From an uncultured Pseudomonadota bacterium (GTDB taxonomy: Bacteria; Myxococcota_A; Polyangia; Fen-1088), in contig CAWKBC010000014.1 of the NCBI GenBank assembly GCA_963847705.1, positions 160,001 through 224,000 of the forward strand: DNA of 64,000 bases, given 5' to 3'. Position numbers and translations under genes: made by a program. This document shows, piece after piece, positions 10,720 to 50,830 of this stretch (the first letter of the stretch is position 1; each line of letters opens with the position of its first letter). The notes beneath the pieces were generated by a model, which was not told the DNA's origin, searched no databases, and saw nothing but the letters and a program-made list of their open reading frames with translations.

Positions 10720-10743
10720 ACGATTTCGTCCTGAGGCTTCGGA

Positions 10744-16417: not shown

Positions 16418-16735
16418 ATGGAGCGAGATTGGCGCAAGAAGCTGGCTACTCTGCTGGCGTCGTTGGAGCGAATCTGGGGCCTGAAGACCCGTGTGGCCCT
16501 CGGAGCGACGGTCGCTTCGATAGTCTCGCTGGCGGCTTTACCGGCGGCGAGAGCGGAGGCAAAGACAGACTCGACGGAGATCGCGGCGACCGCCCCCCGC
16601 AAGCCCGGCAAGCTGGCTGGCAAGTTCCTCCTTCGGCAGGCTGGCGGCCGGAGCGGCAGGACGCAGGCTGAACACGGCTCTCACTCCTCGCACAGCTCTC
16701 ACTCGTCGCACCGCTCGGGAGCCTGGCTCCTCTAA
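16418..16735 (+). CDS. hxsA: His-Xaa-Ser repeat precursor protein
   Basis: C-terminal HGS-HSS-HSS-HSS-HRS; hydrophobic N-terminal segment; RBS AGGAGG; upstream of two radical SAM genes. Confidence 0.85.
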   Translation: MERDWRKKLATLLASLERIWGLKTRVALGATVASIVSLAALPAARAEAKTDSTEIAATAPRKPGKLAGKFLLRQAGGRSGRTQAEHGSHSSHSSHSSHRSGAWLL

Positions 16736-16740
16736 CGACC

Positions 16741-17055
16741 ATGTTCGGCGAGACCGAAAGGTCCGTCGAGGGCGAGCGTCAGCTCACTGTCGAGTTGCCG
16801 CTGTACGGGCGTGAGGGACTTCTACGCGCCTGCTATGCCTTCACGGACCGCTGTTTTCTGTTCCTTCGAGACGCCGGTCCCTCGAAGGTCACGGTCGTCT
16901 TTCGTAAGCGACAGAGCCCCAAGACTCTCGAAGCCCTCGTCGAGGAATTCGCCAACGAACTCGTCGGCCAAAGCCTCCGGGCGCAGCTCGCTGCCGAGAC
17001 GAAGTCCGTGCGGGAGCTGATCGTGGCTCAGGCCTTCGCAGAATCTGACCTGTGA
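16741..17055 (+). CDS. hxsD: His-Xaa-Ser system protein HxsD
   Basis: LYGREGLLRACYAFTDRC..EFANEL..LR...AAETKSVRELIVAQAF. Confidence 0.8.
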   Translation: MFGETERSVEGERQLTVELPLYGREGLLRACYAFTDRCFLFLRDAGPSKVTVVFRKRQSPKTLEALVEEFANELVGQSLRAQLAAETKSVRELIVAQAFAESDL

Positions 17056-17279
17056 TCGCCCGTACCCGGACGTTCTCGGCCAGTCTGTACCCGAGATCCG
17101 CCGTTGAGGCCGCCGTGCTCGCTTTCCATGGCATCTGCGAGGTCAGCGTCGAGGACGAACTCGGAGGTATCCGCGCCACGTTCGAGCTACCGGACGGTGC
17201 CACAGAAGATGTCATCGGCGAGTTCTGCAACGTCGCCCTGATCACCGCTGTCGAGATGGAGTTCGGGACCCGTCCATGA
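17052..17279 (+). CDS. Second, shorter HxsD-like protein
   Basis: LYPRSAVEAAVLAF..GEFCNVAL aligns with the N-terminal part of HxsD; coupled to both neighbours by GTGA/ATGA overlaps. Confidence 0.65.
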   Translation: MIARTRTFSASLYPRSAVEAAVLAFHGICEVSVEDELGGIRATFELPDGATEDVIGEFCNVALITAVEMEFGTRP

Positions 17280-18781
17280 CGAAGCCCGTTTTCCGCGAGC
17301 CGAGTCACTTCGAGGAACGGCGGCGGCCATACACATTCCTACCGTTCAGGTACTTGGACCTGGCCGGGCAGAAGCTTCTCGTGAACGAGGTTGGCGAGCA
17401 CCTACTGGTGGCCGATTCCACGTTCGAAGCATTCGTCGGCAAGAAGCTGCAACCGGACGCAGTCGCGTACGGCGATCTAAAGGCTAAGCAAATGCTGCTG
17501 GACGGGCCTCCGGATGTCCCTATCAGGATGCTCGCCACGAAGTACCGGACGAAGCGTAGCTTCCTGTCTGGGTTTACCCGCCTCCACATCTTCGTCGTCA
17601 GTCTCCGCTGCGAGCATTCTTGCCACTACTGCCAGGTCTCTCGAGTGAGTACCGACAAGAGTCGCTACGACATGACTGTGGAGACAGCCAATCGTTCACT
17701 CGACCTCGTGTTTCGGTCGCCGGCACCCGAGCTCAGCATCGAGTTCCAGGGCGGTGAACCACTCCTCAACTTCAACTTGATCCGGCACGTAGTCGAGCAG
17801 GTAGAGCGCAGGATCGCAGTCGAGCCGAGACGGGTCCAATTCGTCATCACCACGAACCTCGCCCTTGTGACCGATGAGATCCTAGAGTTTTGCCGTCAGC
17901 ACAAAATCCTGATCTCGACGTCGCTCGACGGACCGGCATCCATCCACAACACGAATCGCCCCCGACCAGGCAACGACAGTCACGAGCTGACCGTCCGGGG
18001 TATCGAGCGCGCAAGGTCGATCCTCGGTTACGACCAGGTCTCGGCGCTGATGACGACGACGAAGCTGACGCTGGACCACCCCGAGGAGGTCGTCGACGAG
18101 TACGTTCGACTCGGTTTTGACCACATCGTCCTGCGCCCGCTCAGCCCTTACGGGTTCGCGGTCAAGACGAAGCTCAAGACCGGCTACGACACGGACGCCT
18201 ACCTTCGCTTCTATGAGAGGACGCTCGCCTACGTCATCGAGATGAATCGAGGGGGTGGGTTCTTCGTGGAAGGCTTCTCGCAGCTGCTGCTCACCAAGAT
18301 CCTCACCCCGTTCGCGACTGGATACGTCGACTTGCAGTCGCCTGCCGGTGCCGGGATCTCGGCGGCCGTCTACAACTACGATGGCGACGTCTACGTGTCC
18401 GACGAAGCCAGGATGCTGGCCGAAATGGGTGACAAGACCTTCAGGCTCGGAAGTGTCCACACCGACACCTACGAGGCCATGTTCGGTGGCGAGCTGCTGC
18501 GCACGCTTGTGGAATCGTCGTGCGTGGAGTCACTCCCGGGCTGTTCGGACTGCGCACTCCAGACTTGGTGCGGATCCGATCCCGTCGAGAACTACGCCAA
18601 GCAGGGCAACATCGTCGGGCACCGACCGACCAGCGATTTCTGCCACCGGAACATGAGCATCATCAAGCACCTGCTGCGCCTCTATCATGAGGGAGACGAT
18701 CAGCTCCGACGCATTTTCTGGTCGTGGGTGAACAACAGACCAGTCGCCGAACTGGTTCCGGGCTTGGAGGCGATAGCGTGA
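17276..18781 (+). CDS. hxsB: His-Xaa-Ser system radical SAM maturase HxsB (SPASM-type C-terminus)
   Basis: LHIFVVSLRCEHSCHYCQVS, IEFQGGEPLL, YVDLQSPAGAG, YVSDEARML, CSDCALQTWCGSDP. Confidence 0.92.
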   Translation: MTKPVFREPSHFEERRRPYTFLPFRYLDLAGQKLLVNEVGEHLLVADSTFEAFVGKKLQPDAVAYGDLKAKQMLLDGPPDVPIRMLATKYRTKRSFLSGFTRLHIFVVSLRCEHSCHYCQVSRVSTDKSRYDMTVETANRSLDLVFRSPAPELSIEFQGGEPLLNFNLIRHVVEQVERRIAVEPRRVQFVITTNLALVTDEILEFCRQHKILISTSLDGPASIHNTNRPRPGNDSHELTVRGIERARSILGYDQVSALMTTTKLTLDHPEEVVDEYVRLGFDHIVLRPLSPYGFAVKTKLKTGYDTDAYLRFYERTLAYVIEMNRGGGFFVEGFSQLLLTKILTPFATGYVDLQSPAGAGISAAVYNYDGDVYVSDEARMLAEMGDKTFRLGSVHTDTYEAMFGGELLRTLVESSCVESLPGCSDCALQTWCGSDPVENYAKQGNIVGHRPTSDFCHRNMSIIKHLLRLYHEGDDQLRRIFWSWVNNRPVAELVPGLEAIA

Positions 18782-19980
18782 TCAGGCTCGTCTCCCGCGG
18801 CGTCGCGCAGGGTCAGTTCAGGGACGAGAGGCTCGGTCGGATCACGACAACGGCTATCGACCCAGACCTTCGAGCAGATCACGCCTTCCTCGTCAGGCCG
18901 GCATCGGCGACGCCAGACCTCACTGGGTATGCCGGCGTCCTGGTGCTTCCCGGCGCTGAGGTTCCGACGACGGACCTACCAGCGACGAAGGTCGGCGAGG
19001 AACTGAGCTACCTATCAGACGGCGATGTCGTCCTCATGACACCGTCGGGCCGGATAAGCGTCCTGTACCGGAAATCATCACGACACAATACGATCCTGTC
19101 GACGGAGAGGTGCAACAGCCTCTGCCTCATGTGCTCGCAGCCCCCGCAACCTGAGGACGACAGCTACAGGGTTCCCCAGATCCTGCGACTGCTGGACCTC
19201 ATCGACACCGGCTGTGTCGAACTGGGTGTTAGCGGGGGCGAGCCCCTGCTCCTGGGTGACGGCTTCTTTTCGATCGTCGAGAAGTGCAAGCGGCTGCTGC
19301 CATCGACCGCCCTTCACGTGCTCACGAACGGCCGCCTGTTCAAGGATCCGACCTTTGCGAAGCGACTCGGCGACATCGCTCACCCAGACATCATGCTCGG
19401 GATTCCCCTGTACGCGGACGTCGACACCGTCCACGACTATGTCGTGCAGGTGCAAGGCGCCTTCGATGAGACCGTCTTCGGTCTATACAACCTGGCTGAA
19501 CACGGCGTTCCCATCGAGATCCGCGTCGTCCTCCACGCCCAGACGTACCGACGTCTGCCTCAGCTGGCCGAGTACATCTATCGAAACTTCCCATTCGTCT
19601 CCCACGTCGCCCTCATGGGCCTGGAGATGTTCGGGTACACGAACATCAACCTGGCCGACCTCTGGATCGACCCCGTCGACTACCAACCCGAACTTCGGGC
19701 TGCGACGATGACTCTCGCGGAGCGCGGGCTGAACGTCTCCATCTACAATCACCAACTCTGCACGATCCCGCAGGAACTGTGGCCGTTCGCTAGGCAGTCG
19801 ATCTCCGACTGGAAGAACATCTTCGTACCCGAGTGCGAGGGCTGTTCGGCAAAGGCGATGTGCTCGGGGTTCTTCCACTCAGCAGCGAAGCGGCACAGCG
19901 CCCACATAGCGCCGCCGAAGATACCGGCAGTGCTTGCGGATCGATTGACCAGCCTGGGAGTCGAGGCGGCTCGCGGGTAG
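18778..19980 (+). CDS. hxsC: His-Xaa-Ser system radical SAM maturase HxsC
   Basis: TERCNSLCLMCSQPP, SGGEPLL, HDYVVQ..GAFDET, SISDWKN..CEGC..CSGFF; RBS GGAGG and GTGA overlap. Confidence 0.92.
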   Translation: MIRLVSRGVAQGQFRDERLGRITTTAIDPDLRADHAFLVRPASATPDLTGYAGVLVLPGAEVPTTDLPATKVGEELSYLSDGDVVLMTPSGRISVLYRKSSRHNTILSTERCNSLCLMCSQPPQPEDDSYRVPQILRLLDLIDTGCVELGVSGGEPLLLGDGFFSIVEKCKRLLPSTALHVLTNGRLFKDPTFAKRLGDIAHPDIMLGIPLYADVDTVHDYVVQVQGAFDETVFGLYNLAEHGVPIEIRVVLHAQTYRRLPQLAEYIYRNFPFVSHVALMGLEMFGYTNINLADLWIDPVDYQPELRAATMTLAERGLNVSIYNHQLCTIPQELWPFARQSISDWKNIFVPECEGCSAKAMCSGFFHSAAKRHSAHIAPPKIPAVLADRLTSLGVEAARG

Positions 19981-22146: not shown

Positions 22147-22399
22147 GTGGGCGAGTCTATCGCTTGGCGACGTCGAGCGGGACCAGCCGCCACTATCCGC
22201 TGGACGGGCCGGCCCGATGCCGACCTTCGGCCTCATGAGGCCGACCACAGACGCGGATTTCTGCCGCCGCGGCCGTCGAGCGCAGGGTGTCTGCTTACGT
22301 CGCCGTCGCTTCGCTCATTCACGAGTCGAGCACCACGACGATCTAGGCTATCTCAGGCCCGAGGTCGCCGTCGCGCTTGGAGGGGTGAACGCTCACGGT

Positions 22400-28177: not shown

Positions 28178-28220
28178 CTGTCACGCCGGAGGCCGCGGGT
28201 TCAAGTCCCGTCCACCCCGC
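28178..28220 (+). pseudogene. 3' half of a tRNA-Asp(GTC), att-site remnant
   Basis: CTGTCACGCCGGAGGCCGCGGGTTCAAGTCCCGTCCACCCCGC: anticodon loop, T arm and acceptor 3' strand; no 5' half upstream. Confidence 0.8.
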
Positions 28221-28228
28221 TGAAACCC

Positions 28229-28456: not shown

Positions 28457-28577
28457 CTTTTCTCTCGGTCAAGAGAGACATGATCGCCAGGCATGCCTAC
28501 CAGACTTTCCAATCGTTACCGCTGGAACTACCGAGAACTGCTGACGTTTCTCCGTCTGCGGTAACGTTTCGTGGTCG

Positions 28578-28590
28578 TAAGCTATTGATT
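28578..28590 (-). promoter_or_regulatory. IHF-consensus site beside attR
   Basis: Reverse strand AATCAATAGCTTA matches WATCAANNNNTTR. Confidence 0.55.
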
Positions 28591-28607
28591 TTGTTCGTAG
28601 ACGGTCA

Positions 28608-28658
28608 GAATCGCACTCAGGAGGCCGACGGTTCGATCCCGTTCATCTCCACGATTTT
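28608..28658 (+). repeat. attR core (tRNA-Ala 3' half duplicate)
   Basis: 51/51 identity with 2956-3006. Confidence 0.95.
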
Positions 28659-28759
28659 ACTGATGATTTTTTTGCCGCAGGGCAGCGAGAAAACGTTTGA
28701 GAGGCAAACGTTTTTCGTTAGCTCGGCAGAAGTAACGCCCATTCGGGAGACGGCGCCCT

Positions 28760-30169
28760 CTAGGGTCTGGCGATGAGCTGCCCGATCTTGGTGGCCACGG
28801 CGGTCGTCGTGGTCGCGTAGCTCGCGTCGCAGACCGATCCGAGGACGTTGTTCGGGAAGGCGTTCACGAACTGGGCGATGCGCACGCCCGGATCGGCGAA
28901 GCTGCCGTCGGTCGTGTTCTGGGTGGCCTTGGGGTTGACGTAGCCGCCGGGGCCGACCGCGCCGCAGGAGTGCATGACCGTCGGCCAGAGCTCACCCGGC
29001 TGCGTGTTCTGACCACCCTCCGCGGGTATCCAGGCGACCGTGTAAGGTGCGGCGGGCCCGGCGATGGCGGCGACGAGGATCTGGTTGTCCGGGTCTGGCT
29101 TCAGCGACTTGATGTCGCTGATGAACTTCGAGACCGGCGTGAGCGCGCTCGATCCGGTCCCCGTCGGGGGTTGCTCGTTGTCGACGCAGTTGGCGAGATC
29201 GAGAGTGGGCGCGCTGGACGTCCCCTGCGCGTCGGTGGGGGGCTTGAGCGGCGGGATCATCCAGGCGTTTCCGCTCGCCACATCCTGGCAGTAGTGGGCC
29301 CCGCGGGGGCCGCCGTTGCAGCGGTAGTTGGCGATGGGGCCGTCGGGGTTCGAGATGTTCTGCTGGGCGCCGTTGAGCGAATAGATCGTCGTGTCGGCGG
29401 GGGCCGAGCAGTCGTCCTCGTTGGTCAGCATCAAGATGACGAGGTAGGCGCTCGGCCGCAGGAAGTTGGAGTTCGTGGCCGGGGCCGCGCCGAGGCCGTC
29501 GGCGCCGAGGGCGCGATCGATCGAGGCGAGCTGATGCTCGAAGCCGCAGCCTTTGCCACCGAGGAGCTCGATGCACTGGACCACGTTGCCGAGGGGGTCG
29601 GTGTAGTTCGGCATCATGTCGGCATCGGAGATGAACGTGTCGCCGGCGATCAGCGTCGTGTTCACGCAGGTGCCCTGCGGCGCCGCATGGAAGGCACCCT
29701 GGTCGCCCTGTTTGGTGCAGCCAATCGAGGTGGTCGAGTCGCCGGGCGCGCCCATGTCCGAAGAGACGACGGCCAGGTGCAGGCTGAGCGGTACGGGGAG
29801 TCCCTCCAGCGCATTGATGAACCCCGGGAGCTGGTCGTAGAGCTTCGCCTGCATCTCCTCCATCTCGGACGAGTCGTCGATCATCATCAGGACGTCGACC
29901 TCGTTGTTGATCTTGCTTCCGAACGAGCCGCCGACCGGCGTCCCCCCGCTGCCGCCCGAGCCGAAGCTTCCGCCCATGATGCCCGCGCCGCCGGTGTCCC
30001 CGCCCGAACCGCCGGAACCACCAGTCGCGCCCGCCCCGCCGGCTCCCGACAGCGATTCGCCGCCGTGACAGCCGGCCACGGAGCCGGCCACGGAGCCGGC
30101 CACGACCGCCAGTACGACCGAGAGGCCGAGGGGCCACCGCCGAGTCTCCCGAGCTGAGCGAACAGTCAT
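28760..30169 (-). CDS. Myxobacterial vWA-like lipoprotein
   Basis: Lipobox VAGC, Gly-rich linker, DVLMMIDDSSEM MIDAS-like motif, GCGFEHQL, TNEDDCS, SVCDASY. Confidence 0.8.
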   Translation of the reverse strand: MTVRSARETRRWPLGLSVVLAVVAGSVAGSVAGCHGGESLSGAGGAGATGGSGGSGGDTGGAGIMGGSFGSGGSGGTPVGGSFGSKINNEVDVLMMIDDSSEMEEMQAKLYDQLPGFINALEGLPVPLSLHLAVVSSDMGAPGDSTTSIGCTKQGDQGAFHAAPQGTCVNTTLIAGDTFISDADMMPNYTDPLGNVVQCIELLGGKGCGFEHQLASIDRALGADGLGAAPATNSNFLRPSAYLVILMLTNEDDCSAPADTTIYSLNGAQQNISNPDGPIANYRCNGGPRGAHYCQDVASGNAWMIPPLKPPTDAQGTSSAPTLDLANCVDNEQPPTGTGSSALTPVSKFISDIKSLKPDPDNQILVAAIAGPAAPYTVAWIPAEGGQNTQPGELWPTVMHSCGAVGPGGYVNPKATQNTTDGSFADPGVRIAQFVNAFPNNVLGSVCDASYATTTTAVATKIGQLIARP

Positions 30170-30782
30170 CAGAGCCTTCCACGTCTTTAGTGCGATCCCA
30201 CCGATCAGATCGGGTCAGCTTTCGCGCTCCCGAGGATGAGTAAGAAAAGCGCGGGTTTTGGCTGATAATACTTCCTTCCGTCCGTCAGAATCGCGTGGCC
30301 GCCCTGGCGGAACATCGACCTTGGTGCCGCTGAACTTGACGCTCACCTGCGGGGATCGCAGGGCCAGGGACTCTGGCGGTCCTCATTAAGCGATCGCCAC
30401 CACGTCGCAGGCGACCAGCGATGGCAGCGTCACGGTCTCCGCCGTATTGGCTACCTTCATCACCGAACCTCTGACAGTTCTCGTCTCTAGCCTCTGGTTC
30501 TCGTAGACGCCTGAGGCGCTCGGCGTTCGGTCCCGGCCTGAGACCCTTCGCCGCCAGGTGCTTGCCGTAGGAGTCGATCGCGGTCGGCCACAGTCACGCC
30601 CTCCTCCACGATTGGATCGCCGATCTAGCTCTGTGACGGTGAGACTCCCGCTGGCGCCTGGTTCTGCCTTCCGTGAAGAGATCTCCATTCGTTTTGCTTC
30701 CAAGTAGCTAACGTTGCTGACGTTCTCGGAGTCGAGAAAACGTTTGGGTTCATGAGGCGTGGATATCGTTCGTTAATCTTTA

Positions 30783-30817
30783 GAATCGCACTCAGGAGGC
30801 CGACAGTTCGATCCCGT
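30783..30817 (+). repeat. Third copy of the tRNA-Ala att core
   Basis: GAATCGCACTCAGGAGGCCGACAGTTCGATCCCGT, 34/35 identical to the tRNA. Confidence 0.88.
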
Positions 30818-30832
30818 CCCGGGACCGGGACC

Positions 30833-31705
30833 TCAATTGAAGCCGAGCTGAAGTTGGCCCTGGTCAGAGATGAAGACCGGCGCGGCGACGAAGATCGGGG
30901 GGAGAGGGTTCAAAGGATAGAAGTAAACGGCACCTATGGTGAGCGCAAGCACTGGTGGGTTCGGGAGCGACGCGGACGGTACGAGGCGGTACCCGATACC
31001 GGCGCCGTCGCTGGTGAGCGAGGTGCCGCAGCCGTCGACGGCCGGGCTCGGGTCAGACGGAGTGGGAGCGCAATCAGGGAAGTTGGCCGAGACCTCGGCA
31101 TCGAATATGTCCCCGAGCGCCAGCACGGGCGACAGGACCGTACAGGTCGCGGCGTCCGTGCAGCTCACGACCTCGATCGCCTGACCGGTAGGCATGAGAT
31201 TGACCACGGTCACGTGCTCGTTGCCGGCCGTGGGTGCGTCGGGGAGCGACACGAAGAGGCCCTGCAAGGCGTCGAGCGGACCGTACAGAAACAACCGCGC
31301 GTTTCCCCCCGCCGGAATCTGACCGTCGCCGTCGAAGATCGGCGCCTGCCCCGGCGCCGCGATCGTGAAGTGGTGCGGGCCGGCGTCCAGGTAGTGGACC
31401 GAATTCTCGGCCCCCTCGGTCACCGTGTAGAGGGACTGGCCCGCTTGTTCCGGGTCATAGAGGAGATCGCCGTCGAGCCAGAGATCGTACTGCGTCAAGT
31501 TCGGGTTCGTCGCAACGCGCGCCTGCTCCGCCTGGAATGTGGCGTCGGTGGGGGAGAGTGAGGTGACCAGGCCGCCTTTGTTCGATCCGGCGCTGGTGCT
31601 GGCGATGACGACGTTGCTCGGATCGACGTTTTTCGTGGCGCACGCCGAGAGACAGAGATGCATGCAGGCGAACCACAAGACTGTCAACAGCCGACGGTTT
31701 TTCAT
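30833..31705 (-). CDS. Lipoprotein divergent from an ECF module
   Basis: Lipobox LSAC; similar to 48612-49487 (VTVVNL..VVSC..TCT). Confidence 0.75.
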   Translation of the reverse strand: MKNRRLLTVLWFACMHLCLSACATKNVDPSNVVIASTSAGSNKGGLVTSLSPTDATFQAEQARVATNPNLTQYDLWLDGDLLYDPEQAGQSLYTVTEGAENSVHYLDAGPHHFTIAAPGQAPIFDGDGQIPAGGNARLFLYGPLDALQGLFVSLPDAPTAGNEHVTVVNLMPTGQAIEVVSCTDAATCTVLSPVLALGDIFDAEVSANFPDCAPTPSDPSPAVDGCGTSLTSDGAGIGYRLVPSASLPNPPVLALTIGAVYFYPLNPLPPIFVAAPVFISDQGQLQLGFN

Positions 31706-31815
31706 CGAAGCTCCTTCCACCCTTTTTGTTGGGACCGTTGCCTTTCTTGGTCGGGTGCAGTGAGCAAAAAGAAAGATCTTCCCGACCGGGAAGTCCGCCA
31801 GACTAACCACCGGTA

Positions 31816-32805
31816 GTGTATCGGGCCTCTCGACACAAGCTCCTCCTCTGCCTGGCGGGCGTCGCGTTGCTGGCAGCGGCGGCCTCGCGCACCCACGCTG
31901 GGACCGCCGACGCGGCGCCCCCGATGCCGCCCACACCGGAGCAGCTAGACACGCTGCCGTTTTCGGACGCCGAGCTCCAGCAAGCGTTGCTGGCGCGGTT
32001 GCTCGGTCAGGCTGGTGAACCGGCGCTCCTCCGGATCGACGTCAAGCCTGCCGGCGCCGGCGCGGTGGCCGTCCGCGTCGGCGCACGGAGCCGGATCGTC
32101 GCGCTGAACGAGCGAACCGGTGCCGGCGCCGCGCGCGTCGTCGCTCTGGTTATCGCCGAGATCCTGAACAGTGGCGTCGAGACGCCCCCCGCTGGCGAAA
32201 CGCCAACTACCGCCGATGCGAAACGCGCGATCCAGGCGCCCAGCCGGACGGCCTCCGGCACGGTCGTGCCGCACCCCACGCTCGCTGCCACCGGGGAGCC
32301 GACCGCCGCGCCAGAATGGAAGTCGCGTCTCTGCTTGACGAGCGGCGCCGCCAAGGGGACAGGCGACGAGGAGCTCCTGGCCGGGACCCTCGACGTCGAT
32401 CTGACGATGGCGTTCGGCCACGGTCGACTGCGGCTCGCGCCGTCGGCGGGCCTCACGATCATGCCGACGCGCAACGCGGGGACGCTCGATCAGGTTTCGT
32501 TCCTGGCGGTGAGCGGGCGTCTGCTGGGTGGCGCGACCTTCGGCCCGCTCGACTTCCTAGGCGGTCCCGTCGTCTCGCGCTACAGCATCGGCGGGGCCAC
32601 GCCCCATGGCGGGCTCCTTGTCGGAGCCGAAGGGGTGGCCCGCCTGGCGGCGCCGTTGTCGGACCGGTTCCGCCTCGTCGCTGCGGCGCGGGTCGACGGG
32701 TTTGCGGATCGCGTCCGGGTCTTCTGGGTCGACGGTCGGGCCTACGCGACGCCGCGGGTGGAGTTGGGCGTCGGCGTCGGATTGGCCTGGGAATGGGCGT
32801 CATGA
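31816..32805 (+). CDS. Secreted/outer-membrane protein heading an ECF operon
   Basis: Signal peptide; ARVVALVIAE; amphipathic beta-strand C-terminus. Confidence 0.7.
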   Translation: MYRASRHKLLLCLAGVALLAAAASRTHAGTADAAPPMPPTPEQLDTLPFSDAELQQALLARLLGQAGEPALLRIDVKPAGAGAVAVRVGARSRIVALNERTGAGAARVVALVIAEILNSGVETPPAGETPTTADAKRAIQAPSRTASGTVVPHPTLAATGEPTAAPEWKSRLCLTSGAAKGTGDEELLAGTLDVDLTMAFGHGRLRLAPSAGLTIMPTRNAGTLDQVSFLAVSGRLLGGATFGPLDFLGGPVVSRYSIGGATPHGGLLVGAEGVARLAAPLSDRFRLVAAARVDGFADRVRVFWVDGRAYATPRVELGVGVGLAWEWAS

Positions 32806-33410
32806 CCCGGTCGTCCGCTTCCCCTCGCCAGTCGACCGCGGAAGCGGCGGCTAAAGACGCCGGCCTCGTTGACGCGGCGGCGCGCGGCGATCGGCGAGCG
32901 TTCGCAGAGCTCTACCGACGGCACCTCGACTCGGTCTACGCGCGTCTCACGCGTGTGATCGGCCCGGCACCCGAGCGCGAAGATCTGGTCCAGCAGATCT
33001 TCCTCGACGTCTACCGGGCTTTGACGCGATTCCGGGGCGATTCCGCGTTCTCGACTTTCCTGCACCGAATCGTCCTCAACGTCGCCTGCGAGCACCTCGA
33101 GCGCCGGCGGCGTGGGCGCGGGCGCAGCGAACCGCTCGGAGCCCGACAGATCGAAACCCTCATCGCGCCGGACGCCTCGCCCGAGCAAAGGGCGCGCCAG
33201 CGCGAGGAGCTGGCCCGTCTGTTCAGGTTCCTCGAGGTGCTTTCGCCCAAACGGCGTGCGGCCTTCGTCCTGGTGGCGATCGAGTCTCTGCCGATCGAGG
33301 AGGCGGCGCGGCTGCTGGACGCCAAACCGGCGGCGATCAAGCAGCGTGTCCTCGAGGCGCGCCGGGAGCTGGCGCGCGCGCTCGACCGCGCGCATGAGGA
33401 GACGACATGA
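32802..33410 (+). CDS. ECF RNA polymerase sigma factor
   Basis: AFAELYRRH, EDLVQQIF, FRGDSAFSTFLHRI, region 4 LSPKRRAAFVL. Confidence 0.92.
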   Translation: MTRSSASPRQSTAEAAAKDAGLVDAAARGDRRAFAELYRRHLDSVYARLTRVIGPAPEREDLVQQIFLDVYRALTRFRGDSAFSTFLHRIVLNVACEHLERRRRGRGRSEPLGARQIETLIAPDASPEQRARQREELARLFRFLEVLSPKRRAAFVLVAIESLPIEEAARLLDAKPAAIKQRVLEARRELARALDRAHEETT

Positions 33411-34567
33411 AGCCCGACGAGCACGACGCCCGTATCGAGACGGAGATTACCGGTCCGCTGCGAGAGGCGCACTCGGCGCTCGACGAGCTTCACCGCGCCC
33501 GGCTGTCTTTCGCCATCGAGACAACGCTCGACCGCGAGGACAAGGCGATGGCGGCGGGCCGTGCGTCGCGCGTCCGGCGTCGGCGCGTCTGGCTATCAGC
33601 GTCGGGGATCGCCGCCGCGATCGTGGTCGGGGCGGTGTTCTTGACACGCGGACCGCATGCGCCGCCGCGGACCGGCGCGCCCGTGGCGAGCGCTCCTGAA
33701 ACCCGGGCGCCGCCCTTGTTGGTCCCCTACCACGGGGCGGGCGAGCGGGTCCCGGCACCGTCCCCCACGACGAGCCTGCTGGCGCTGGCCGGCGAGAGGG
33801 TGCGTGCCACCGTCGGCACACGCGTGCGCCTTACGCTCGTGGGTCCAGGCCGGGTATCAGTTCTGCCTGCGGCCCGGGTGGGCGACGTCGAGCTAGCGCT
33901 GAACGAAGGACGCCTCCTGGTAGACTACGACGGACACGCGGGGGGCATGCTGAGTGTCGGGTCGCCCGGGGCCGTCACCACGGTCGTTGGAACGCTTTTC
34001 GCCGTCGAGGCGACCGGATCGTCAAGTCGCGTCGCCGTGGCGCGGGGACGGGTTCGGACCACCGACAGCACCGGACACCTCTGGCAGGTCGCCGCAGGCG
34101 ACAGCTGGACCAGCGCCGACGGTCGGTTGGCTCCCATCTCCGACGAGCTCGCCGCGGCCCTCGTGCGCCACGAGGCGGACTGGACGACGGTGCCGCCCGT
34201 CGCGCACCCCGACGAGCCGATCGAGCCTTTGCCGCCGGCGGTGCGTCCGAGCGTGCACCCACGGCGGCAGGTCAAACTGGACGCTCTTTACGCCAAGGCC
34301 GAAGCGGCCATGCGCGCCCACGCGATCGCCGAAGCGTGCCGGATTCTTGAGACCATCGTCGATCGCGATCGCAACGGCCCGCTCGGTGAAACGGCCTTGC
34401 TCGACCTGGCTCGGCTGGCGCTCGCTGACGGCGACCGGGTGGAGGCGCGCCGCGCCCTCGCCCGCCTGCCACCTCGCCTCGCCGATCCGGCCCTGGCCGA
34501 GACCGCCAGCCATCTCCGTTGCCGTGCCGAGCGCGTACTCGACGACGGCGATAGCTGCGGGTTTTGA
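33407..34567 (+). CDS. FecR-domain anti-sigma factor with C-terminal TPR-like helices
   Basis: One TM helix, VVGTLFAVE..VAVARGRV FecR motif. Confidence 0.85.
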   Translation: MKPDEHDARIETEITGPLREAHSALDELHRARLSFAIETTLDREDKAMAAGRASRVRRRRVWLSASGIAAAIVVGAVFLTRGPHAPPRTGAPVASAPETRAPPLLVPYHGAGERVPAPSPTTSLLALAGERVRATVGTRVRLTLVGPGRVSVLPAARVGDVELALNEGRLLVDYDGHAGGMLSVGSPGAVTTVVGTLFAVEATGSSSRVAVARGRVRTTDSTGHLWQVAAGDSWTSADGRLAPISDELAAALVRHEADWTTVPPVAHPDEPIEPLPPAVRPSVHPRRQVKLDALYAKAEAAMRAHAIAEACRILETIVDRDRNGPLGETALLDLARLALADGDRVEARRALARLPPRLADPALAETASHLRCRAERVLDDGDSCGF

Positions 34568-34571
34568 ACCA

Positions 34572-34595
34572 GAATCGCACTCAGGAGGGCGACGG
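34572..34595 (+). repeat. Fourth (shorter) copy of the tRNA-Ala att core
   Basis: GAATCGCACTCAGGAGGGCGACGG, 23/24 identical to the tRNA. Confidence 0.8.
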
Positions 34596-34878
34596 GTCCG
34601 GCCTCGGAATCTTGGTGAACCGGCTGGTCCAATCAGCTTCTTCCCACTCAAGTGCAGGAAAAGCGGACCGGCGCCCCAGTTGCCGGGTGCTGGTCGGCCT
34701 CCTTCCTGCCGGGACTGTCCTGGAAAGCCACGTCGGGCGGCGCCCTTCGTCGGCGCGAAGGGGGAGAAGGGCACCACGTGCCGAGATAAATTCGACGATG
34801 CTTGCTTAGCACTTCGGGGGCCTCGTGCGTCGTGGAGGGTAAATGCTCGCGCGTGCTGCGCGGCTAAGAGGAGAAAAC

Positions 34879-36000
34879 ATGTCCTTTCATCGTTTCGTCG
34901 CGACGTCCGCGCTGGCTCTTGCCCTCGCCCACACCGCCGCCTGTGGCCAACTCTCGGGAGACACCGGCTCCCCCTCCACGCTCACCACCATTCACGGGAC
35001 CATCACTTCCAATTCCACGTCGGCGCCTGCGTCGCTGGCCACGGCCATCGTCTGGGAAGAGATGTCACCGGACGGGACCCTTCATGAGGCCGCCGACAGC
35101 GTGCCTGTGTCCGGGACCTTTCCGGCGTCCTTCAGCATCGCCCTCACCGGGCTCCCCCCCGCGAGCGCGATGCTCGACTTCGCCACCTTTGGGGGCACTC
35201 CTGGGAGCCCCTCCGCCACCGGCGTGCATGTCGCGGTGGGACTCGTGGTGGCGTACGACGACCGCAACGGTAACGGCCAGCTGGATCTCGTCGACGCGAG
35301 CGCATCGCATTACATCGACGAGATCGAGGGTGTGGGCGACCGGTACATCGTCTACCTCGACAGGTCCGTCCCTGCGACGCTCGTGACGAGTCCCGAGTTT
35401 GACGCACTGGGCATCGACGGCTCGATGCCACAGGAGGGCTACAATCTGGTACTTCCGCAGTCCAACTATTGCTTCGCGAACGCCGACGCGGGCGCGGCGG
35501 GAACGTGCACGAGGGGCATCATGTGGGAGCCCATGAAGACCGCCGTCACTATTCCCCTGGGAACGGCCACGGTGATTTTTCCCACGGACCTGCAGGAGCT
35601 GATGTGCTCCTCGGGGCCGAACGGCGACCAGATGGTCGTTGGCGCCCAATCGACGATTTCGGTCGCGGATTTTTCTGGGGCGCTCCCCTCGGCCGACGAT
35701 CCGAACGTGGACTGTTTGGACCTCAACAACTTCCAGTACATCTCGTCTTGCACGACGAGCCCGGCCGGGGTTTGCCAGCAGGTGAACACCGTATGTACCC
35801 AACCGACGATCGTGACACTCGATCCCGCGGGGGGCTCGCCCATCACGCCGCCCGCCAACTGGCCGTGCCCCGCGCAGACGCCGCCGCCTTCCGCCTATCT
35901 GAGCTGGTTGGCAGCGAGAGGGTCGGGGACGGTCAGCGGCGGCGGCGGTGGCGGCTCGAGCGGGTCCGGCTCCGGCGGAACAGGGACGAGCTCGAACTGA
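34879..36000 (+). CDS. Cys-containing lipoprotein
   Basis: RBS AGAGGAG, lipobox TAAC, YDDRNGNGQLD Ca-binding-like loop, Gly/Ser tail. Confidence 0.78.
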   Translation: MSFHRFVATSALALALAHTAACGQLSGDTGSPSTLTTIHGTITSNSTSAPASLATAIVWEEMSPDGTLHEAADSVPVSGTFPASFSIALTGLPPASAMLDFATFGGTPGSPSATGVHVAVGLVVAYDDRNGNGQLDLVDASASHYIDEIEGVGDRYIVYLDRSVPATLVTSPEFDALGIDGSMPQEGYNLVLPQSNYCFANADAGAAGTCTRGIMWEPMKTAVTIPLGTATVIFPTDLQELMCSSGPNGDQMVVGAQSTISVADFSGALPSADDPNVDCLDLNNFQYISSCTTSPAGVCQQVNTVCTQPTIVTLDPAGGSPITPPANWPCPAQTPPPSAYLSWLAARGSGTVSGGGGGGSSGSGSGGTGTSSN

Positions 36001-36024
36001 ATCCGTCGCCCGGCTTGATAGTCC

Positions 36025-36534
36025 ATGCCGACCGACGACGGAGCAGACTTGACCAACGAGGAGCTGGCCGAGCTCTATCGCCGGTACGGGTTCTTGCTTC
36101 GTCGTCGTTGCCGCATGCTCTTACGCGACGAAGCCCTCGCCGAGGACGCCTTGCAGACCGCCTTCGTGAAGATCATCGAATCGCGCGCAGCGCTGGCGCG
36201 CGCCGACAACCGGCTGGCCTGGATGTATCGGGTCGTGGACCGTTGCAGCTTTGACCTGCTGCGCCGCCGCCGCGTGCGGCGCGCCGAGCCGATCGACCAG
36301 CACTCGGACAGGACGGCTGCCGCCCCGGGGGTCGACCTGGAGGCGCGCAACGCCGTGCTTCGCATCCTCAGCGAGCTCACCGAGTCTGAGTTTGAGGTCG
36401 CTGTGCTGTCCTACGTCGACGGGGTGCCCCAGACCGAGATCGCGTCGGCTTTGGGCCTCTCCCGGCCGACAATTTGGAAACGTCTGCTTTCCATACGCGA
36501 GCGGGCAGCTCGTTTGCTCGAGGTGACGCCATGA
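36025..36534 (+). CDS. ECF RNA polymerase sigma factor
   Basis: LYRRYG, AEDALQTAF, LAWMYRV, EIASALGLSRPTI. Confidence 0.9.
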   Translation: MPTDDGADLTNEELAELYRRYGFLLRRRCRMLLRDEALAEDALQTAFVKIIESRAALARADNRLAWMYRVVDRCSFDLLRRRRVRRAEPIDQHSDRTAAAPGVDLEARNAVLRILSELTESEFEVAVLSYVDGVPQTEIASALGLSRPTIWKRLLSIRERAARLLEVTP

Positions 36535-37250
36535 ACGATCTCCCGAACCACCACCACCCCACGGGTGCTCGGCTGGACGCCGTCATCACAGGGGACGCCG
36601 ACCCCCGCGCGGCAGCGCACGTCGCATCCTGCGCCGAGTGCGCGGCCTACGTCGAGCGTCTCCGCCAGGGGGCGGAGAGCTTCGCCGCGGCCCCGCGCCC
36701 CAGCCCCGAGGCATTCGTGCAGGCCGTCGTCCGTCGGCGGGCAGGAGAGGGGGCGCGTCAGGCGCGGTCGCGTTGGATCGGCGCGACGACCTCCGGGCTG
36801 GCCCTCGCGGCGTGCGTCGTGATCCTCGCGCATGCGCGGCCGATCACCGCGCCACCAAACGACGTCCCAGTGGTGGCGCCGGGACCGGGGCCGATCCGGT
36901 TCAAAGGGGGATCTCAGGTGGCCGTGATCGTCGAGCGGCGCGGAGGGCAGTCGCGCGAGCTGGGGGCTCTGAGCGTCGCGCCCGGCGATCGGATCCGAGT
37001 CGAGATTGCGCTCGACCACGACGATGACGTAGAAGCCGGCGTGCTCGCCGGCGACGGCACCTGGGTTGCGCTCCAGCCGGCCACGCACCTCGGTGCGGGG
37101 ACGCACTTCTCGGCGGGAGCGGTTGCCTTTGACCAGCATGTTGACGAAGGTTGGGTCGTCGTCGGGCCCCCCGATGCGGTCGCGCGGGCGCGCGCAACGC
37201 GGGACCTCTCCGGCGTCCACGCCATCCGCATCCACCCGGCTACCCCGTGA
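36531..37250 (+). CDS. Zinc-binding (ZAS) membrane anti-sigma factor
   Basis: HVASCAEC (HxxxCxxC), TM helix, IRFKGG extracytoplasmic domain. Confidence 0.82.
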   Translation: MNDLPNHHHPTGARLDAVITGDADPRAAAHVASCAECAAYVERLRQGAESFAAAPRPSPEAFVQAVVRRRAGEGARQARSRWIGATTSGLALAACVVILAHARPITAPPNDVPVVAPGPGPIRFKGGSQVAVIVERRGGQSRELGALSVAPGDRIRVEIALDHDDDVEAGVLAGDGTWVALQPATHLGAGTHFSAGAVAFDQHVDEGWVVVGPPDAVARARATRDLSGVHAIRIHPATP

Positions 37251-38815
37251 AACGAGCCAACCTCGCGCTGGGCTTGGCGCTCCTCGTCGCCCTGGCTGCA
37301 CCGGAGGTGCTGGCGGCACCGGTTCGCATCCTCATCGCGGTCGGCGCGCCGACGGGGCTCTCGGACGATCAGACTCTTGTGCACCCCCGGGACGACGCGC
37401 GCGGCGTCGCGGAGGTACTGACCGCGCTCGGCGGAGTGTCTCCACGAGAGGCGCTGCTCGTCCCCGATGCGCGGGTCGCTTCCGTCCGGGCGGCCTTTGA
37501 TCGTGCCGAGGCGATTGCTCGCGGTCACGCTGCTGCGGAGGTGACGTTCGTCTTCTACTTCAGCGGCCACGGTGACCACGAGGCGCTCCATCTCTCGGGA
37601 GAGACGCTCTCGCTGGACGAGCTGCGCGCCCGTGTCGAACGCATGCCGGTGGCACTTCGCCTCGTGATCATCGACGCCTGCCGCGTGAGCAGAGATCGCG
37701 CGAAGGGAATGACGATGGAGCCCGGCTTCGCCATTTCCCTCGCTCCCGTACCGTCGGCGTCGGGTATGGCCTGGCTCTTCGCCTCGAGCGACGGAGAGGT
37801 GGCGCAGGAGTCCGACGAGATCGGCGGGGCGCTCTTCTCGCATTTCTGGACGACGGGTCTCCGGGGCGCGGCCGACGCCGACGGTGACGGACGCGTCACG
37901 CTGCAGGAGTCGTTCGACTTCGCGTACGCGCAGACGCTCCTGCGGTCGGCGCGCTCGGGCGCGGTGCTGCAAAGGCCGCAGGAAAAGCTCGATCTCAGTG
38001 TGGCGGGTCCGGTGGTTCTCACTCAGCTGGCCGCGCAGCGTTCAACGCTCGTGCTCCCGGCCGACCGGGACGCCCTTTACCTCGTGTACGGCATTGCCTC
38101 GCACGCGCTCGAGGCCGAGCTGTTCGGGAGCCCGGATCGATCCACCTCCCTCGCGCTCCCCGCCGGGCGTTACCTCGTGCAACGCCGCTTCGCCGGGACC
38201 GGGGCCGCGACGGAGGTGCTTCTCACGCCGGGAGGCGTCCGCACGCTGGAGCCGGGGACCCTTCACCCCTTCGAACCCCAAGCGCTCGCGCGCAAGAGCG
38301 AGCTCGTGGTGAGCCCGTGGAGCCTGACCTTGAGCGACGGCGTTGTTGCGGGGAGCGCGATTCTCTGTGGGCGACGAAGCCATACTCGAGGTCGAGCGGC
38401 GCTGGGCGAGCTTTGGCGTCGCCGTGCGAGCGCTCGGGGGTTGGGGGAGAACGCGACCCCGGCGAACCAAGTCTACGAAACGACGCTCGGGGGCGAAGCG
38501 GGGCTCGTCCGTATCCTGTCGCTGGGCGCGCGGGTAGACATGCGTCTCGGCGTCGACGCGCGCGCGGAATACATCCGGCAACAGGTAGAACGGAAGGATG
38601 CGGCCATGGTTGAAACGGTCGGATACCCGGGCATCATGTATTTCAATGGGAGCGCTTGGGGTGGAGGGCTCCACGCTGACGCCCGATACCAGCTCTCGAC
38701 CACCTTCCATCTCGTGGCCGCGGTGAAGGGCTTGGCGCTGGGGACGCCGACCGCCATGGGGCTCCAGGCGCGACTCTCTTTCGGCGCGTACCTAGGAATC
38801 GGCGCGTCGTTCTGA
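37247..38815 (+). CDS. Exported caspase-like (peptidase C14) protein with beta-barrel-like C-terminus
   Basis: Signal peptide, FYFSGHG (His), IIDACR (Cys), GAADADGDGRVTL, C-terminal YLGIGASF; probable compensating indels at ~38357-38447. Confidence 0.85.
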   Translation: MKRANLALGLALLVALAAPEVLAAPVRILIAVGAPTGLSDDQTLVHPRDDARGVAEVLTALGGVSPREALLVPDARVASVRAAFDRAEAIARGHAAAEVTFVFYFSGHGDHEALHLSGETLSLDELRARVERMPVALRLVIIDACRVSRDRAKGMTMEPGFAISLAPVPSASGMAWLFASSDGEVAQESDEIGGALFSHFWTTGLRGAADADGDGRVTLQESFDFAYAQTLLRSARSGAVLQRPQEKLDLSVAGPVVLTQLAAQRSTLVLPADRDALYLVYGIASHALEAELFGSPDRSTSLALPAGRYLVQRRFAGTGAATEVLLTPGGVRTLEPGTLHPFEPQALARKSELVVSPWSLTLSDGVVAGSAILCGRRSHTRGRAALGELWRRRASARGLGENATPANQVYETTLGGEAGLVRILSLGARVDMRLGVDARAEYIRQQVERKDAAMVETVGYPGIMYFNGSAWGGGLHADARYQLSTTFHLVAAVKGLALGTPTAMGLQARLSFGAYLGIGASF

Positions 38816-39125
38816 GCCGCCGCTCAGCAGAGCGCGGATTCATCAACTGATCCCAGGTGCCGGCACAGGCGATCTGAGGTAGTAACAGAGATCAAGCGCT
38901 TGACCTCACGGCAGCCCATCGTCTGCCCTACGGCGGCCAGGTACTCGGATCTCCGACCGAGCCAGCCGTGACTCTCATCACGTCCCCTTCTGGGACGGAT
39001 GGCTCCAGGATCTTGGAGGCCGACCTGCCAGCGCGTTGCATGTCGATCTTTGATGAGTCGAATTTTGATGATCGGAGGGGGCCTGCCGCACGAACATCCT
39101 GTCGCATATCAGGCGAAGGAGATCC

Positions 39126-39695
39126 ATGACACGTCCAATTTCGCGGTTCGTTACTGTCGTTGGCGTCACTGCAGTGCTCGCGGTCGCTTTGCTCGCCCCG
39201 GGTTGTGGCGGCTCGAGCTCCAGCAACGACGGCGGCGGAACAGGCGGCGAAACCTCGTCGACCGGCGGGACGCCTGGAGCCGGCAAGGCCGGCAATAGCG
39301 GTCACACGGGAGGAACGTCTGGCGCGACGGGGGGAAACAAGGGTACCGGCACCGGCGGGAACAACGGAACGGGCACTGCCGGGACCAACGGCAGCGGCGG
39401 TCAGGGGTTCTTCGGCGGCGGCGGCAACGGCTTCTTCGGCGGCGGCGCCAACGGCTTCTTCGGCGGCGGCGGCGCCAATGGCTTCTTCGGCGGCGGCGGC
39501 GCCAATGGCTTCTTCGGCGGCGGCGGCGCCAATGGCTTCTTCGGTGGCGGCGGCGCCAACGGCTTCTTCGGTGGCGGCGGCGCCAACGGCTTCTTCGGTG
39601 GCGGCGGTGCCAACGGCTTCTTCGGTGGCGGCGGTGCCAACGGCTTCTTCGGTGGCGGCGGTGCCAACGGCTTCTTCGGTGGCGGCGGCGGCTAG
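39126..39695 (+). CDS. Gly-rich lipoprotein with 11 GFFGGG(G)AN-type repeats
   Basis: RBS AAGGAG, lipobox APGC, C-terminal tandem repeat. Confidence 0.75.
   Translation: MTRPISRFVTVVGVTAVLAVALLAPGCGGSSSSNDGGGTGGETSSTGGTPGAGKAGNSGHTGGTSGATGGNKGTGTGGNNGTGTAGTNGSGGQGFFGGGGNGFFGGGANGFFGGGGANGFFGGGGANGFFGGGGANGFFGGGGANGFFGGGGANGFFGGGGANGFFGGGGANGFFGGGGANGFFGGGGG
39405..39692 (+). repeat. 27-bp coding tandem repeat (GFFGGGGAN)
   Basis: GGCTTCTTCGGYGGCGGCGGYGCCAAY units with synonymous variation; first two and last units are 24 bp. Confidence 0.95.
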
Positions 39696-39761
39696 TTCGT
39701 AGCCCGACACTCCCAGCGTCCCCATTGGCTGAACCATTGCTGGCGGCCCACCGGCGCTGGT

Positions 39762-49636: not shown

Positions 49637-50830
49637 ATGGCCGAGAATTGCCTGATTCCGAATCTTTGCTCAATTGGCGGCGTTCCCTGGTCGATGCAGG
49701 AGGGTCGCGTGGGGACGTCGGTGTCGTCGTTCGAGATCAAGACCGAACGGTTCGGGCGCTACCTGCTGCTCGCGCTGGCGACGACGCTCGGCTGCCGCGG
49801 CTCGACCGAGGTCCCCGAGGCGGGGGCGATCTTGGTGCGCGCCCATCTGGCGCCCGGCGCGCCGATGCCGGACGAGTTGAGGCTCTTCGTCTACGACGAC
49901 ACCGGGATCCTCTGGCACGACGTCCGCACCCCGTCGGAGGGGCCGCTGGTGGCCGAAAGCGCGACTCTCCTCGGGACGATCCTGATCAATCCGGGGACCA
50001 CGGTGGGTGATCTCCGAATCGACGTGCACGGGCTCGCGGACGGAAGCCTGGTCGACGAGGCGACGCTGGTCATCGCGCCGGACGCGCGCGGGCAAGGGAC
50101 ATTCGATCTGACGCTCTCCGGGGCGCTCCCCTCGGACACCGACGGCGACGGCGTCCCCGATCCAGTCGATGACTGCCCGACCGTTCCCGATCCGGACCAG
50201 ACCGGCTGTCGCGCCGACGGCGGGTCGGCGGACGCGGCCCCCACGCGGAGAGACGCCGGGCCCGACGCGCCGGCGCGGGCGGGAGAGGGAGGCACCGCCG
50301 GTGGCGGCGCGGCCGGCGCGACGGGCGGTGCGGCGGGCGGTGCGGCGGGCGGTGCGGCGGGAAGGACAGGACAAACCGGCACGGGCGGCACGGCAGGGCA
50401 ATCGGGTGCGGGCGGCGGGGCGGGACGGACCGGACAAACGGGCGCAGGCGGCGCGGCGGGCGGCGCGGCGGGCGACGCGACGGGCGGCGCGGCGGGAAGG
50501 ATCGGACAACCCGGCGCGGGCGGAGCGGCGGGACACGGCGGCGCCGGCGGCGCGACGGGCGGAGCGGCGGGACACGCAGAGGGCGGCGGCGGGTCGGGCG
50601 GTGCGGGCAAGCTCCCCCAGGGCGCCGCCTGCAGCAACGCCAGTGCTTGCGCCACCGGCTTTTGCAAGGACGGCGCGTGCTGCGACACCGCCTGCACCGA
50701 GGCGTGCAACAGCTGCGCGAGCGGCACCTGCACCGAGGTGACCAATGCCCCCGACGATCCCGAATGCCCCGAGCCGCTCTTCGCATGCAACAAGAGGGGC
50801 CAGTGCGTCATCTCGCTCTCATCCGACTGA
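49637..50830 (+). CDS. Lipoprotein with TSP3-like repeat, Gly/Ala linker and Cys-rich C-terminus; start uncertain
   Basis: TLGC lipobox, DTDGDGVPDPVDDCP, GAACSNASACATGFCKDGACC. Confidence 0.75.
   Translation: MAENCLIPNLCSIGGVPWSMQEGRVGTSVSSFEIKTERFGRYLLLALATTLGCRGSTEVPEAGAILVRAHLAPGAPMPDELRLFVYDDTGILWHDVRTPSEGPLVAESATLLGTILINPGTTVGDLRIDVHGLADGSLVDEATLVIAPDARGQGTFDLTLSGALPSDTDGDGVPDPVDDCPTVPDPDQTGCRADGGSADAAPTRRDAGPDAPARAGEGGTAGGGAAGATGGAAGGAAGGAAGRTGQTGTGGTAGQSGAGGGAGRTGQTGAGGAAGGAAGDATGGAAGRIGQPGAGGAAGHGGAGGATGGAAGHAEGGGGSGGAGKLPQGAACSNASACATGFCKDGACCDTACTEACNSCASGTCTEVTNAPDDPECPEPLFACNKRGQCVISLSSD

Follow-up and report, generated by a model that had tools for sequence, protein, structure and literature searches.

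A tRNA-Ala(CGC) accretion array with probable deletion remnants of tyrosine-integrase elements in an uncultured Polyangia genome

Integrons are defined by the integrase IntI and the sites attI and attC, and in lambda-type integrase biology arm-type sites and sites for integration host factor (IHF) lie in the arms of the attachment (att) sites. In streptococci, arrays grow by site-specific accretion of ICEs (integrative and conjugative elements), IMEs (integrative and mobilizable elements) and CIMEs (cis-mobilizable elements): PMC5704250 gives the CIME definition and a three-step accretion route, and PMC7563491 gives CIME sizes of 1.2–13 kb and places the most decayed elements furthest from the target. 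Two further reports describe 15 ssrA islands without an integration module in Dehalococcoides, read as possible CIMEs (PMC3146451), and tycheposon islands of Prochlorococcus with partial tRNAs and fragmented integrases (bioRxiv 10.1101/2020.12.28.424599). Here we analyse repeated 3′ halves of tRNA-Ala(CGC) and the segments between them in a 64-kb stretch of DNA (the window) from an uncultured soil Polyangia genome. The repeats form a genuine accretion array, of a type already known but one that we did not find described for this lineage, and it is not an integron. We give a probability of about 0.72 to a reading in which the repeated cores are recombination sites of tyrosine-integrase elements at tRNA-Ala(CGC) and enclose two small segments that are deletion remnants, accreted in the manner of CIMEs and not built as cassettes. 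A literature search found no paper joining myxobacteria, a genomic island, tRNA-Ala and an integrase, most subscription papers being outside its coverage.

The window corresponds to positions 160001–224000 of contig C14 in a 6.1-Mb metagenome bin that is 85% complete with 6% contamination (G000, the genome under study). We distinguish a large element (2956–28658), segment 1 (28608–30817) and segment 2 (30783–34571); labels G### denote genomes of relatives, L### fetched loci, X# sequencing runs and C# contigs.

As in the streptococcal arrays of PMC5704250 and PMC7563491, an IME-like element adjoins the target, and decayed elements of 1–13 kb that keep att sites and lack integration and transfer genes lie behind it, the most decayed at the greatest distance; because the CIME definition and accretion route given there match the array, we count them for the deletion-remnant reading. 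Different here are the Myxococcota host, the crossover in a tRNA anticodon loop, the presence of at least four arm-motif types on one core, and a segment 2 that is without both arms and probably entered a distal core. The Dehalococcoides islands likewise form a row separated by repeats of the target 3′ end with a recombinase open reading frame (ORF) overlapping attL; there the target is tmRNA, the crossover lies in the T loop and the recombinase is Ccr-related, whereas the counterpart here is a tyrosine integrase at tRNA-Ala. Tycheposon islands are similarly tRNA-anchored and grow by repeated integration, but the elements here carry a relaxase.

The first-pass annotation had called the array integron-like. 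The likeness extends to small gene blocks between co-oriented recombination sites at which they are gained or lost; in contrast to integrons, halves of a tRNA flanked by lambda-type arms take the place of attC hairpins here, the integrase is of another kind than IntI, and the blocks hold several genes in both orientations together with debris. An NCBIfam scan of the integrase at 2965–4158 (E ≤ 0.01) returned six models, each of the Xer type and scoring far under its cut-off, and no model for an integron integrase came near its own cut-off. Neither strand of 28501–34800 contains an R-box pair of the attC type (0 RYYYAAC...GTTRRRY pairs 40–145 bp apart, with no covariance model applied). The cargo does not take the form of integron cassettes either: segment 2 consists of four genes in divergent arrangement and segment 1 of one gene plus ~500 bp of debris. 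The integron label is thus dropped.

The target gene, its displaced copies and one further short match are as follows.

2927–3002, + strand: tRNA-Ala(CGC), the target gene (ARAGORN 2927–3000); its 3′ half from 2956 is an att core (attL)
28608–28658, + strand: att core 1, which serves the large element as attR and segment 1 as attL; 51/51 against the tRNA 3′ half
30783–30817, + strand: att core 2, which breaks off in the T arm at tRNA position 64; 34/35
34572–34595, + strand: att core 3, truncated at tRNA position 53; 23/24, with no right arm upstream
30284–30294, + strand: 11 bp that match the attR junction, either by chance or possibly as the scar of a secondary site

The three downstream copies all have the orientation of the tRNA 3′ half, and the coordinates and identities first reported for them hold. 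Genome-wide match scores of 51, 32 and 21 for the three cores, against ~16 for the best match outside tRNA genes and att sites, lie far above background, so that the copies are not due to chance. ARAGORN finds a single tRNA in the 64-kb stretch, this Ala(CGC) gene, and the gene is 100% identical in 13 of the 24 same-genus genomes searched; a tRNA-fragment scan of the whole genome at relaxed threshold was set aside, as it was swamped by false tRNAs. Since the cores start at tRNA position 30–31, beside the 7-base anticodon loop, we infer a crossover in that loop, and the earlier proposal that the copies are att cores of tyrosine-integrase elements is supported. Core 2 is followed by a short fold-back palindrome (hairpin). 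In relatives, core 3 stands directly 3′ of a type-B right arm. At many loci (for example L061, L069, L086, L097, L111, L119 and L172) arrays end in a core that breaks off at tRNA positions 46–64 and runs directly into unrelated sequence. This form is frequent among terminal cores, and 30817 and 34595 show it too.

Two smaller features of the copies fared less well. The A in front of GAATCGC is real as a letter and fails as a common signature, the position of 30782 being G in 8 of 8 aligned homologous arms. The 11-bp piece GTCAGAATCGC at 30284–30294 does match the attR junction, and its sole occurrences in the 6.1-Mb assembly are those at 28604 and 30284; in a control, one of 12 junction-spanning 11-mers was present in 11 of 983 other 6-kb genome windows (~1%), which is borderline for chance, and no arm lies upstream of the piece. 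On these two grounds it is a weak lead and was not taken for a true cassette boundary.

Across the genus, tRNA-Ala(CGC) is, on the comparison of genomes, an integration hotspot. The 16-base core is present in 20 of 25 other genus genomes, in 12 of these with at least two copies; at the level of the family it was found in 50 of 89 genomes, G000 among them, compared to one match for a reversed control pattern. A right-arm-plus-core pattern retrieved 112 metagenome stretches and 17 genome stretches, and related integrases, 55–78% identical, lie 3′ of the tRNA in G015, G017, G019 and G020. Synteny to G001 ends at ~3500 and restarts at 45309, so that the variable region reaches well beyond the array. 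By eye, at least four arm-motif types can be distinguished, all containing AA(C/T)G(A/T)(A/T)T. A type-B left arm is combined with a type-A right arm in G016 and G050; the idea that the two arms of an element must be of one type was dropped for that reason, and integrase types may cross-recognise arms. The same arm types also flank tRNA-Ala(GGC) cores in G010, G019, G015 and G021 (L056, L057, L058 and L047), from which it follows that the element family uses a second alanine tRNA too. Partial tRNA-Ala copies of another form, starting 5′ of the anticodon stem (22–27) and ending at 55–66, were seen at L046:9628, L048:9769 and L049:9295, one of them behind the apparent end of a different integrase gene (by eye); they possibly belong to another element family or to secondary-site insertions. 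In L020 (G015), within 4900–6870, an apparent second tyrosine recombinase gene (by eye) lies directly upstream of the integrase, which is 1.7 kb from attL.

Segment 1 has the following parts.

28659–28719, + strand: left arm, type B, with the inverted pair GAAAACGTTT/AAACGTTTTTC; the integrase that follows in relatives is absent here
28760–30169, − strand: 469-aa predicted lipoprotein, the segment-1 cargo; no Pfam or NCBIfam match, lipobox by eye
30500–30629, − strand: frameshifted integrase fragment (residues 83–123 of the G015 integrase), fused to the right arm
30674–30782, + strand: right arm, type B; 84–92% identical to its counterparts in G021, G023 and several metagenome loci

The left arm matches the left end of the integrase-bearing element of G017 at 89% over 107 bp, core included, and L092 at 96% over 111 bp. 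Where integrase sequence follows this type of left arm in G017, G016, G024 and L092, the 3′ end of the cargo gene follows here. The fragment at 30500–30629 aligns to the G015 integrase gene (L020) with 74.6% nucleotide identity over 130 bp (E = 4e-18) and 74–75% amino-acid identity, and its fusion to the right arm recurs in L138 (30597–30817 at 89%). That no integrase lies between the copies, as had been stated, consequently stands for intact genes and not for fragments. Both arms contain the 14-mer CGAGAAAACGTTTG, found as described at 28686 and 30733 and only there in the assembly; because the motif recurs in left arms of integrase-bearing elements of relatives, it is likely an arm-type site. 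In the right arm, 8 of 96 columns are private to G000 against six homologues, 7 of these 8 near the core, and G000 differs from the six homologues at 9–14 positions compared to 2–9 among the homologues. Decay of the IHF site at 30783 was also considered and rejected as weak evidence (2 mismatches, against 0, 1, 1 and 2 in four relatives). Arm typing relied on regular expressions that missed several arms visible by eye, both segment-1 arms included, and type counts in the survey of inter-core segments are lower bounds on this account.

Segment 1 thus retains attL and attR in sequence (28608–28719 and 30674–30817, homologous to element ends in relatives), has no functional integrase or transfer gene, and appears deletion-derived, the same left arm adjoining an integrase in G017, G024 and L092. 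With both arms of a different element type than the large element, and with an integrase fragment, it fits a CIME, a putative deletion remnant that was not integrase-free by origin. Its cargo family is multicopy in Myxococcota, falls into unnamed protein-atlas clusters and has eight paralogues in the G000 genome; no Ala core was found within the 1.5-kb flanks of 19 other loci, nearly all of which carry homologues of the gene.

A survey of relatives allowed us to follow such decay more broadly. We compiled 67 non-redundant left ends (2 from the 64-kb stretch, 4 from other genera), excluding cores cut before position 72, ends with <1.4 kb downstream and near-duplicates. The integrase is full-length by coverage at 8 ends, truncated at 24 and missing within 300 nt at 35; the number of truncated ones may be too high owing to frameshift errors in bins built from long reads. 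The 24 truncated integrases have 24 different lengths (57–917 nt), which argues for repeated decay and not for one minimal cassette family. Full-length integrases were found at 6 of 19 ends next to the tRNA and at 2 of 48 behind an attR, and one of these two is really a tRNA truncated at a contig end. Among 14 inter-core segments in relatives (0.9–9.1 kb), one holds an intact integrase, eight a remnant, and five gave no match at E ≤ 1e-4. In one instance parent and remnant can be set side by side: an integrase-less 5.9-kb segment of G021 carries a 32-residue integrase tail, 84% identical to the integrase of G017, and 962 bp of its cargo are 97% identical to the inside of the intact G017 element, and this is, judged by its sequence, a direct parent–remnant pair. 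Right ends that are 99% identical over 0.8–1.2 kb have different neighbours past the core in L012/L100, L061/L082, L063/L114 and L019/L124. We found no instance of one whole integrase-less unit shared by two different arrays; L068/L138 come closest, with 527 bp at 91%. The minimal integrase-free cassettes proposed for the array are not borne out, given the integrase remnant in segment 1 and the continuum of truncations in relatives. That the segments would turn out to be deletion remnants is an outcome which the first-pass annotation had itself set against its proposal, and it is the one to which the same two observations point.

Segment 2 contains no comparable trace; its genes and the block behind it are as follows.

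30833–31705, − strand: predicted lipoprotein, DUF4397-like (PF14344 E = 8e-4, below cut-off; atlas clusters 0.94; lipobox by eye)
31816–32805, + strand: predicted exported protein; no family match, homologues 41–46% identical
32802–33410, + strand: ECF sigma factor (PF04542, PF08281; TIGR02937 above cut-off)
33407–34567, + strand: FecR-domain anti-sigma factor with a C-terminal TPR-like part (PF04773)
34596–38858, + strand: older accessory block tied to core 3 (predicted lipoprotein, ECF sigma factor, anti-sigma-like and caspase-like proteins)

The lipoprotein gene diverges from those for the exported protein, the sigma factor and the FecR protein, and the cargo fits as tightly as had been noted, with the lipoprotein stop 15 bp from the copy at 30783 and the FecR stop 4 bp from that at 34572. 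Segment 2 has no left arm, no right arm before 34572 and no integrase match; lacking a complete attL and attR, it resembles a more decayed remnant. Homologous modules at 67–68% identity occur in G001, G004, G017 and G020, in all four with a homologue of 31816–32805 beside the ECF/FecR pair, and no Ala core lies in the 14-kb stretches around them. The specificity for lipoprotein/ECF cargo that had been proposed for the array does not hold, as homologues occur elsewhere with no Ala core nearby and other segments carry unrelated cargo.

As had been predicted, segment 2 is present or absent across relatives exactly at the core. A contig of X10 joins 30800 to 34590 and leaves out 3789 bases (one of eight runs examined), and in G021:C6 and L151 a type-B right arm leads straight into the core that ends at position 53, with the downstream block of G000 behind it. 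Precise absence in three sequences indicates that the cores are real exchange points. Identity of the downstream block to G000 is ~96% for X10, where 3411 bp contain 140 differences and 31 gaps, 92% for L151 and 77–78% for G021, where homology extends over 4.3 kb; its first gene occurs in 3 of 26 genus genomes. A single gain of segment 2 in the G000 line would be more parsimonious than repeated loss. The left core exceeds the resident core in length, and a tRNA tail would therefore have come in with the new DNA. A parallel is found in L061/L082, where the same right end (99%) leads either into a truncated core or into a full core with left arm. Late arrival at the most distal core would mean that array order is not age, and the claim that identity decays with distance, as a measure of age, is not supported: it is mainly in how far their 3′ ends reach that the copies differ, and segment 2 is most likely late at the most distal core. 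In X8, one contig departs from the window sequence at 30826, which is 9 bases beyond the end of the truncated core. Segment 2, with no arms and with precise presence or absence at the core, is the single odd feature of the array.

In the course that we propose, the crossover of each element falls in the 7-bp anticodon loop; the tRNA is made whole again, and a displaced 3′ half stays behind. Deletions inside the elements would then strip the integrase and mobilisation genes, and often the arms, and the displaced cores would remain targets for integration. Segment 2 would have been carried by such an element to the most distal core, with its own longer tRNA tail (to position 64), and would afterwards have been trimmed on both sides; the right trim, within 4 bp of the crossover, may have been promoted by an integrase. 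Remnants would move only when a neighbouring intact element co-excises them, or rarely with an integrase in trans.

Several observations weigh against this account. In the survey, (i) 9 of 19 tRNA-adjacent elements have truncated integrases, which could mean that defective elements integrate in trans, (ii) nine left ends keep a recognisable A–D arm with no integrase beside it, (iii) some small segments carry matched arm pairs (L056 C/C, L057 D/D, L065 C/C and L085 D/D), and (iv) arm-less cores starting at the crossover recur (L058:5540, L065:7788). In G000, segment 2 has neither an arm nor an integrase remnant from which its descent from a full element could be read directly; its right junction lies at the crossover, which is seldom expected from random deletion; and it seemingly arrived after the split from the ~96% relative, which leaves little time for two trims. 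No independent contig among those listed bridges the 30817 or the 34572 junction. Taken together, occasional use in trans may occur.

It is unlikely that the segments are active non-autonomous cassettes, that is, small circles moved by an integrase in trans that gather envelope and signalling genes at tRNA-derived sites. Segment 1 with its two matching type-B arms, the matched arm pairs and arm-less cores of relatives just listed, and the precise presence or absence of segment 2 with cargo within 15 and 4 bp of its cores would all be accounted for in this way. Against it stand the integrase remnant and other gene debris in segment 1, the different endpoints of all truncations, the lack of a full integrase-less unit in two array contexts, the private changes clustered near the core in the 30783 arm, and the cargo homologues elsewhere with no core nearby. 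Nor was a close type-B integrase found in the G000 assembly (85% complete), in which the full-length relatives are the type-A integrase (61% identical to the type-B integrase) and one at 43% on C40.

We regard as similarly unlikely a related possibility, in which truncated distal tRNA-Ala cores stay live landing pads and resident integrases capture arm-less modules in trans; segment 2 would then have been excised through a sequence just past the FecR stop that resembles a core by coincidence, and would have integrated as a circle without arms. Myxobacteria would in that case gather envelope-signalling modules in an integron-like manner, at tRNA-derived sites. For either route, no circle back-joint at the cores was among the joints listed (contigs, 8 of 20 runs; no run with >10% of words), the fetched loci showed no terminal repeat, and viral contigs gave no match to two patterns; these three negatives do not show absence. 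No RNA run was listed with array sequence.

That segment 2 is instead old in place, in an array whose outermost members are the oldest, and was lost independently by the relatives through its two 24-bp cores seems improbable. An exchange between 30783 and 34572 would yield exactly the X10/G021/L151 allele, the GC content of segment 2 is host-like (0.697 vs 0.691), its homologues in other genomes are no closer than the 67–68% given above, and the greater divergence of the G000 arm is what a long idle site would be expected to show. At least two to three separate losses would be needed, because the downstream block differs as much as it does between X10, L151 and G021, and no relative with segment 2 at the same site was found. 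Hardly credible is a partial assembly chimera of the metagenome bin, joined through the repeated cores: completeness, contamination, junctions at repeats and the missing bridging contigs would allow one, but the cores of 24–51 bp are shorter than a read, X1 has 30261–30709 and 32943–33672 in pieces at 99–100% identity, the arm-less 34572 junction is not the product of mis-joined real att sites, and comparable arrays stand on long contigs of G019 and G021.

Under the deletion-remnant reading, the locus shows a family of integrative elements in uncultured soil Polyangia together with what its decay leaves behind. A single core with at least four arm-motif types and a clean pair of empty and filled alleles at the distal site form a substrate set with which one can ask whether integrases cross-recognise arms and whether truncated distal cores are active. 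The array bears on how tRNA-anchored islands grow and on why array position is an unsafe clock. The general pattern is known from streptococci, Dehalococcoides and Prochlorococcus, so that specialists will find little surprise in it unless arm-less capture is demonstrated.

The large element between the tRNA and core 1 has the following main features.

2965–4158, − strand: tyrosine integrase (PF00589, E = 1.4e-11)
3011–3075, + strand: left arm, type A, with the inverted pair GCGGTAATGA/TCATTACCGC, assigned from sequence; the same arm stands by the same integrase type in G020, G010 and others
4990–6747, − strand: MobP/VirD2-type relaxase (PF03432, DUF3363; NF041267 below its cut-off)
12193–12816, − strand: excisionase-family DNA-binding protein (TIGR01764 above cut-off; PF12728)
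28498–28607, + strand: right arm, type A; homologous arms precede cores in many relatives

With its own integrase, att sites and a relaxase, 2956–28658 has the make-up of an IME; no type IV secretion system family was found among the 24 ORFs of the stretch scanned against Pfam, a subset of its ORFs. The integrase is 55–62% identical to those at the same tRNA in G015, G017 and G019, and the R, HxxR, H and Y motifs are visible by eye in its translation. Homology to relatives stops near 3106, and the ORF continues through the left arm into the core; over 2965–3105 it has no stop at the usual end and reaches a TGA inside the att core, compared to the G017 integrase, which stops ~140 bp earlier. 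Left and right arms have the motif GCGGTAA(T/C)G in common, as inverted pairs, and this motif differs from the 14-mer of the segment-1 arms. The right arm matches the IHF consensus with 0 mismatches. The GC content is low, 0.613 vs 0.691, and the element carries defence-type cargo. Its further genes include a Lamassu defence pair at 9025–11883 (LmuA with a Cap4 nuclease domain, LmuB), a His-Xaa-Ser radical-SAM cluster at 16418–19980 (HxsA-like, HxsD, HxsB, HxsC), and FRG and NB-ARC/TPR proteins.

A short C-terminal integrase fragment lies inside the large element at 22272–22343 (71% over 24 residues to the G019 integrase, E = 0.004), and a 45-bp 3′ half of tRNA-Asp(GTC) inside its right end at 28178–28222. 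Other copies of this half are found at C47:235227 and C47:231937, 3.3 kb apart, and at C14:324876, and three of the four copies have an arm-like sequence upstream in common; ARAGORN at default settings did not find a tRNA-Asp gene in the assembly. The copies suggest a second att array and a large element that is itself composite.

Elsewhere in the assembly, a mobilisation module beside tmRNA at C21:321342–324808 is 88% identical to 4382–7845 (relaxase 91%), with no integrase of the large-element family found in that tmRNA-adjacent stretch, and G000:C21:304563–304620, 22 kb downstream of tmRNA, is a tRNA-Ala core with only a short arm remnant. In G021, the search for the left end of its second type-B element, on C14 as far as the contig end, found no core or integrase. 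Outside the array, the window contains tandem glycine-rich coding repeats of 27 bp and 12 bp at 39359–39736 and 50290–50590, and two 58-bp direct repeats, 72 bp apart and 91% alike, at 507–636, upstream of the conserved genes that precede the tRNA.

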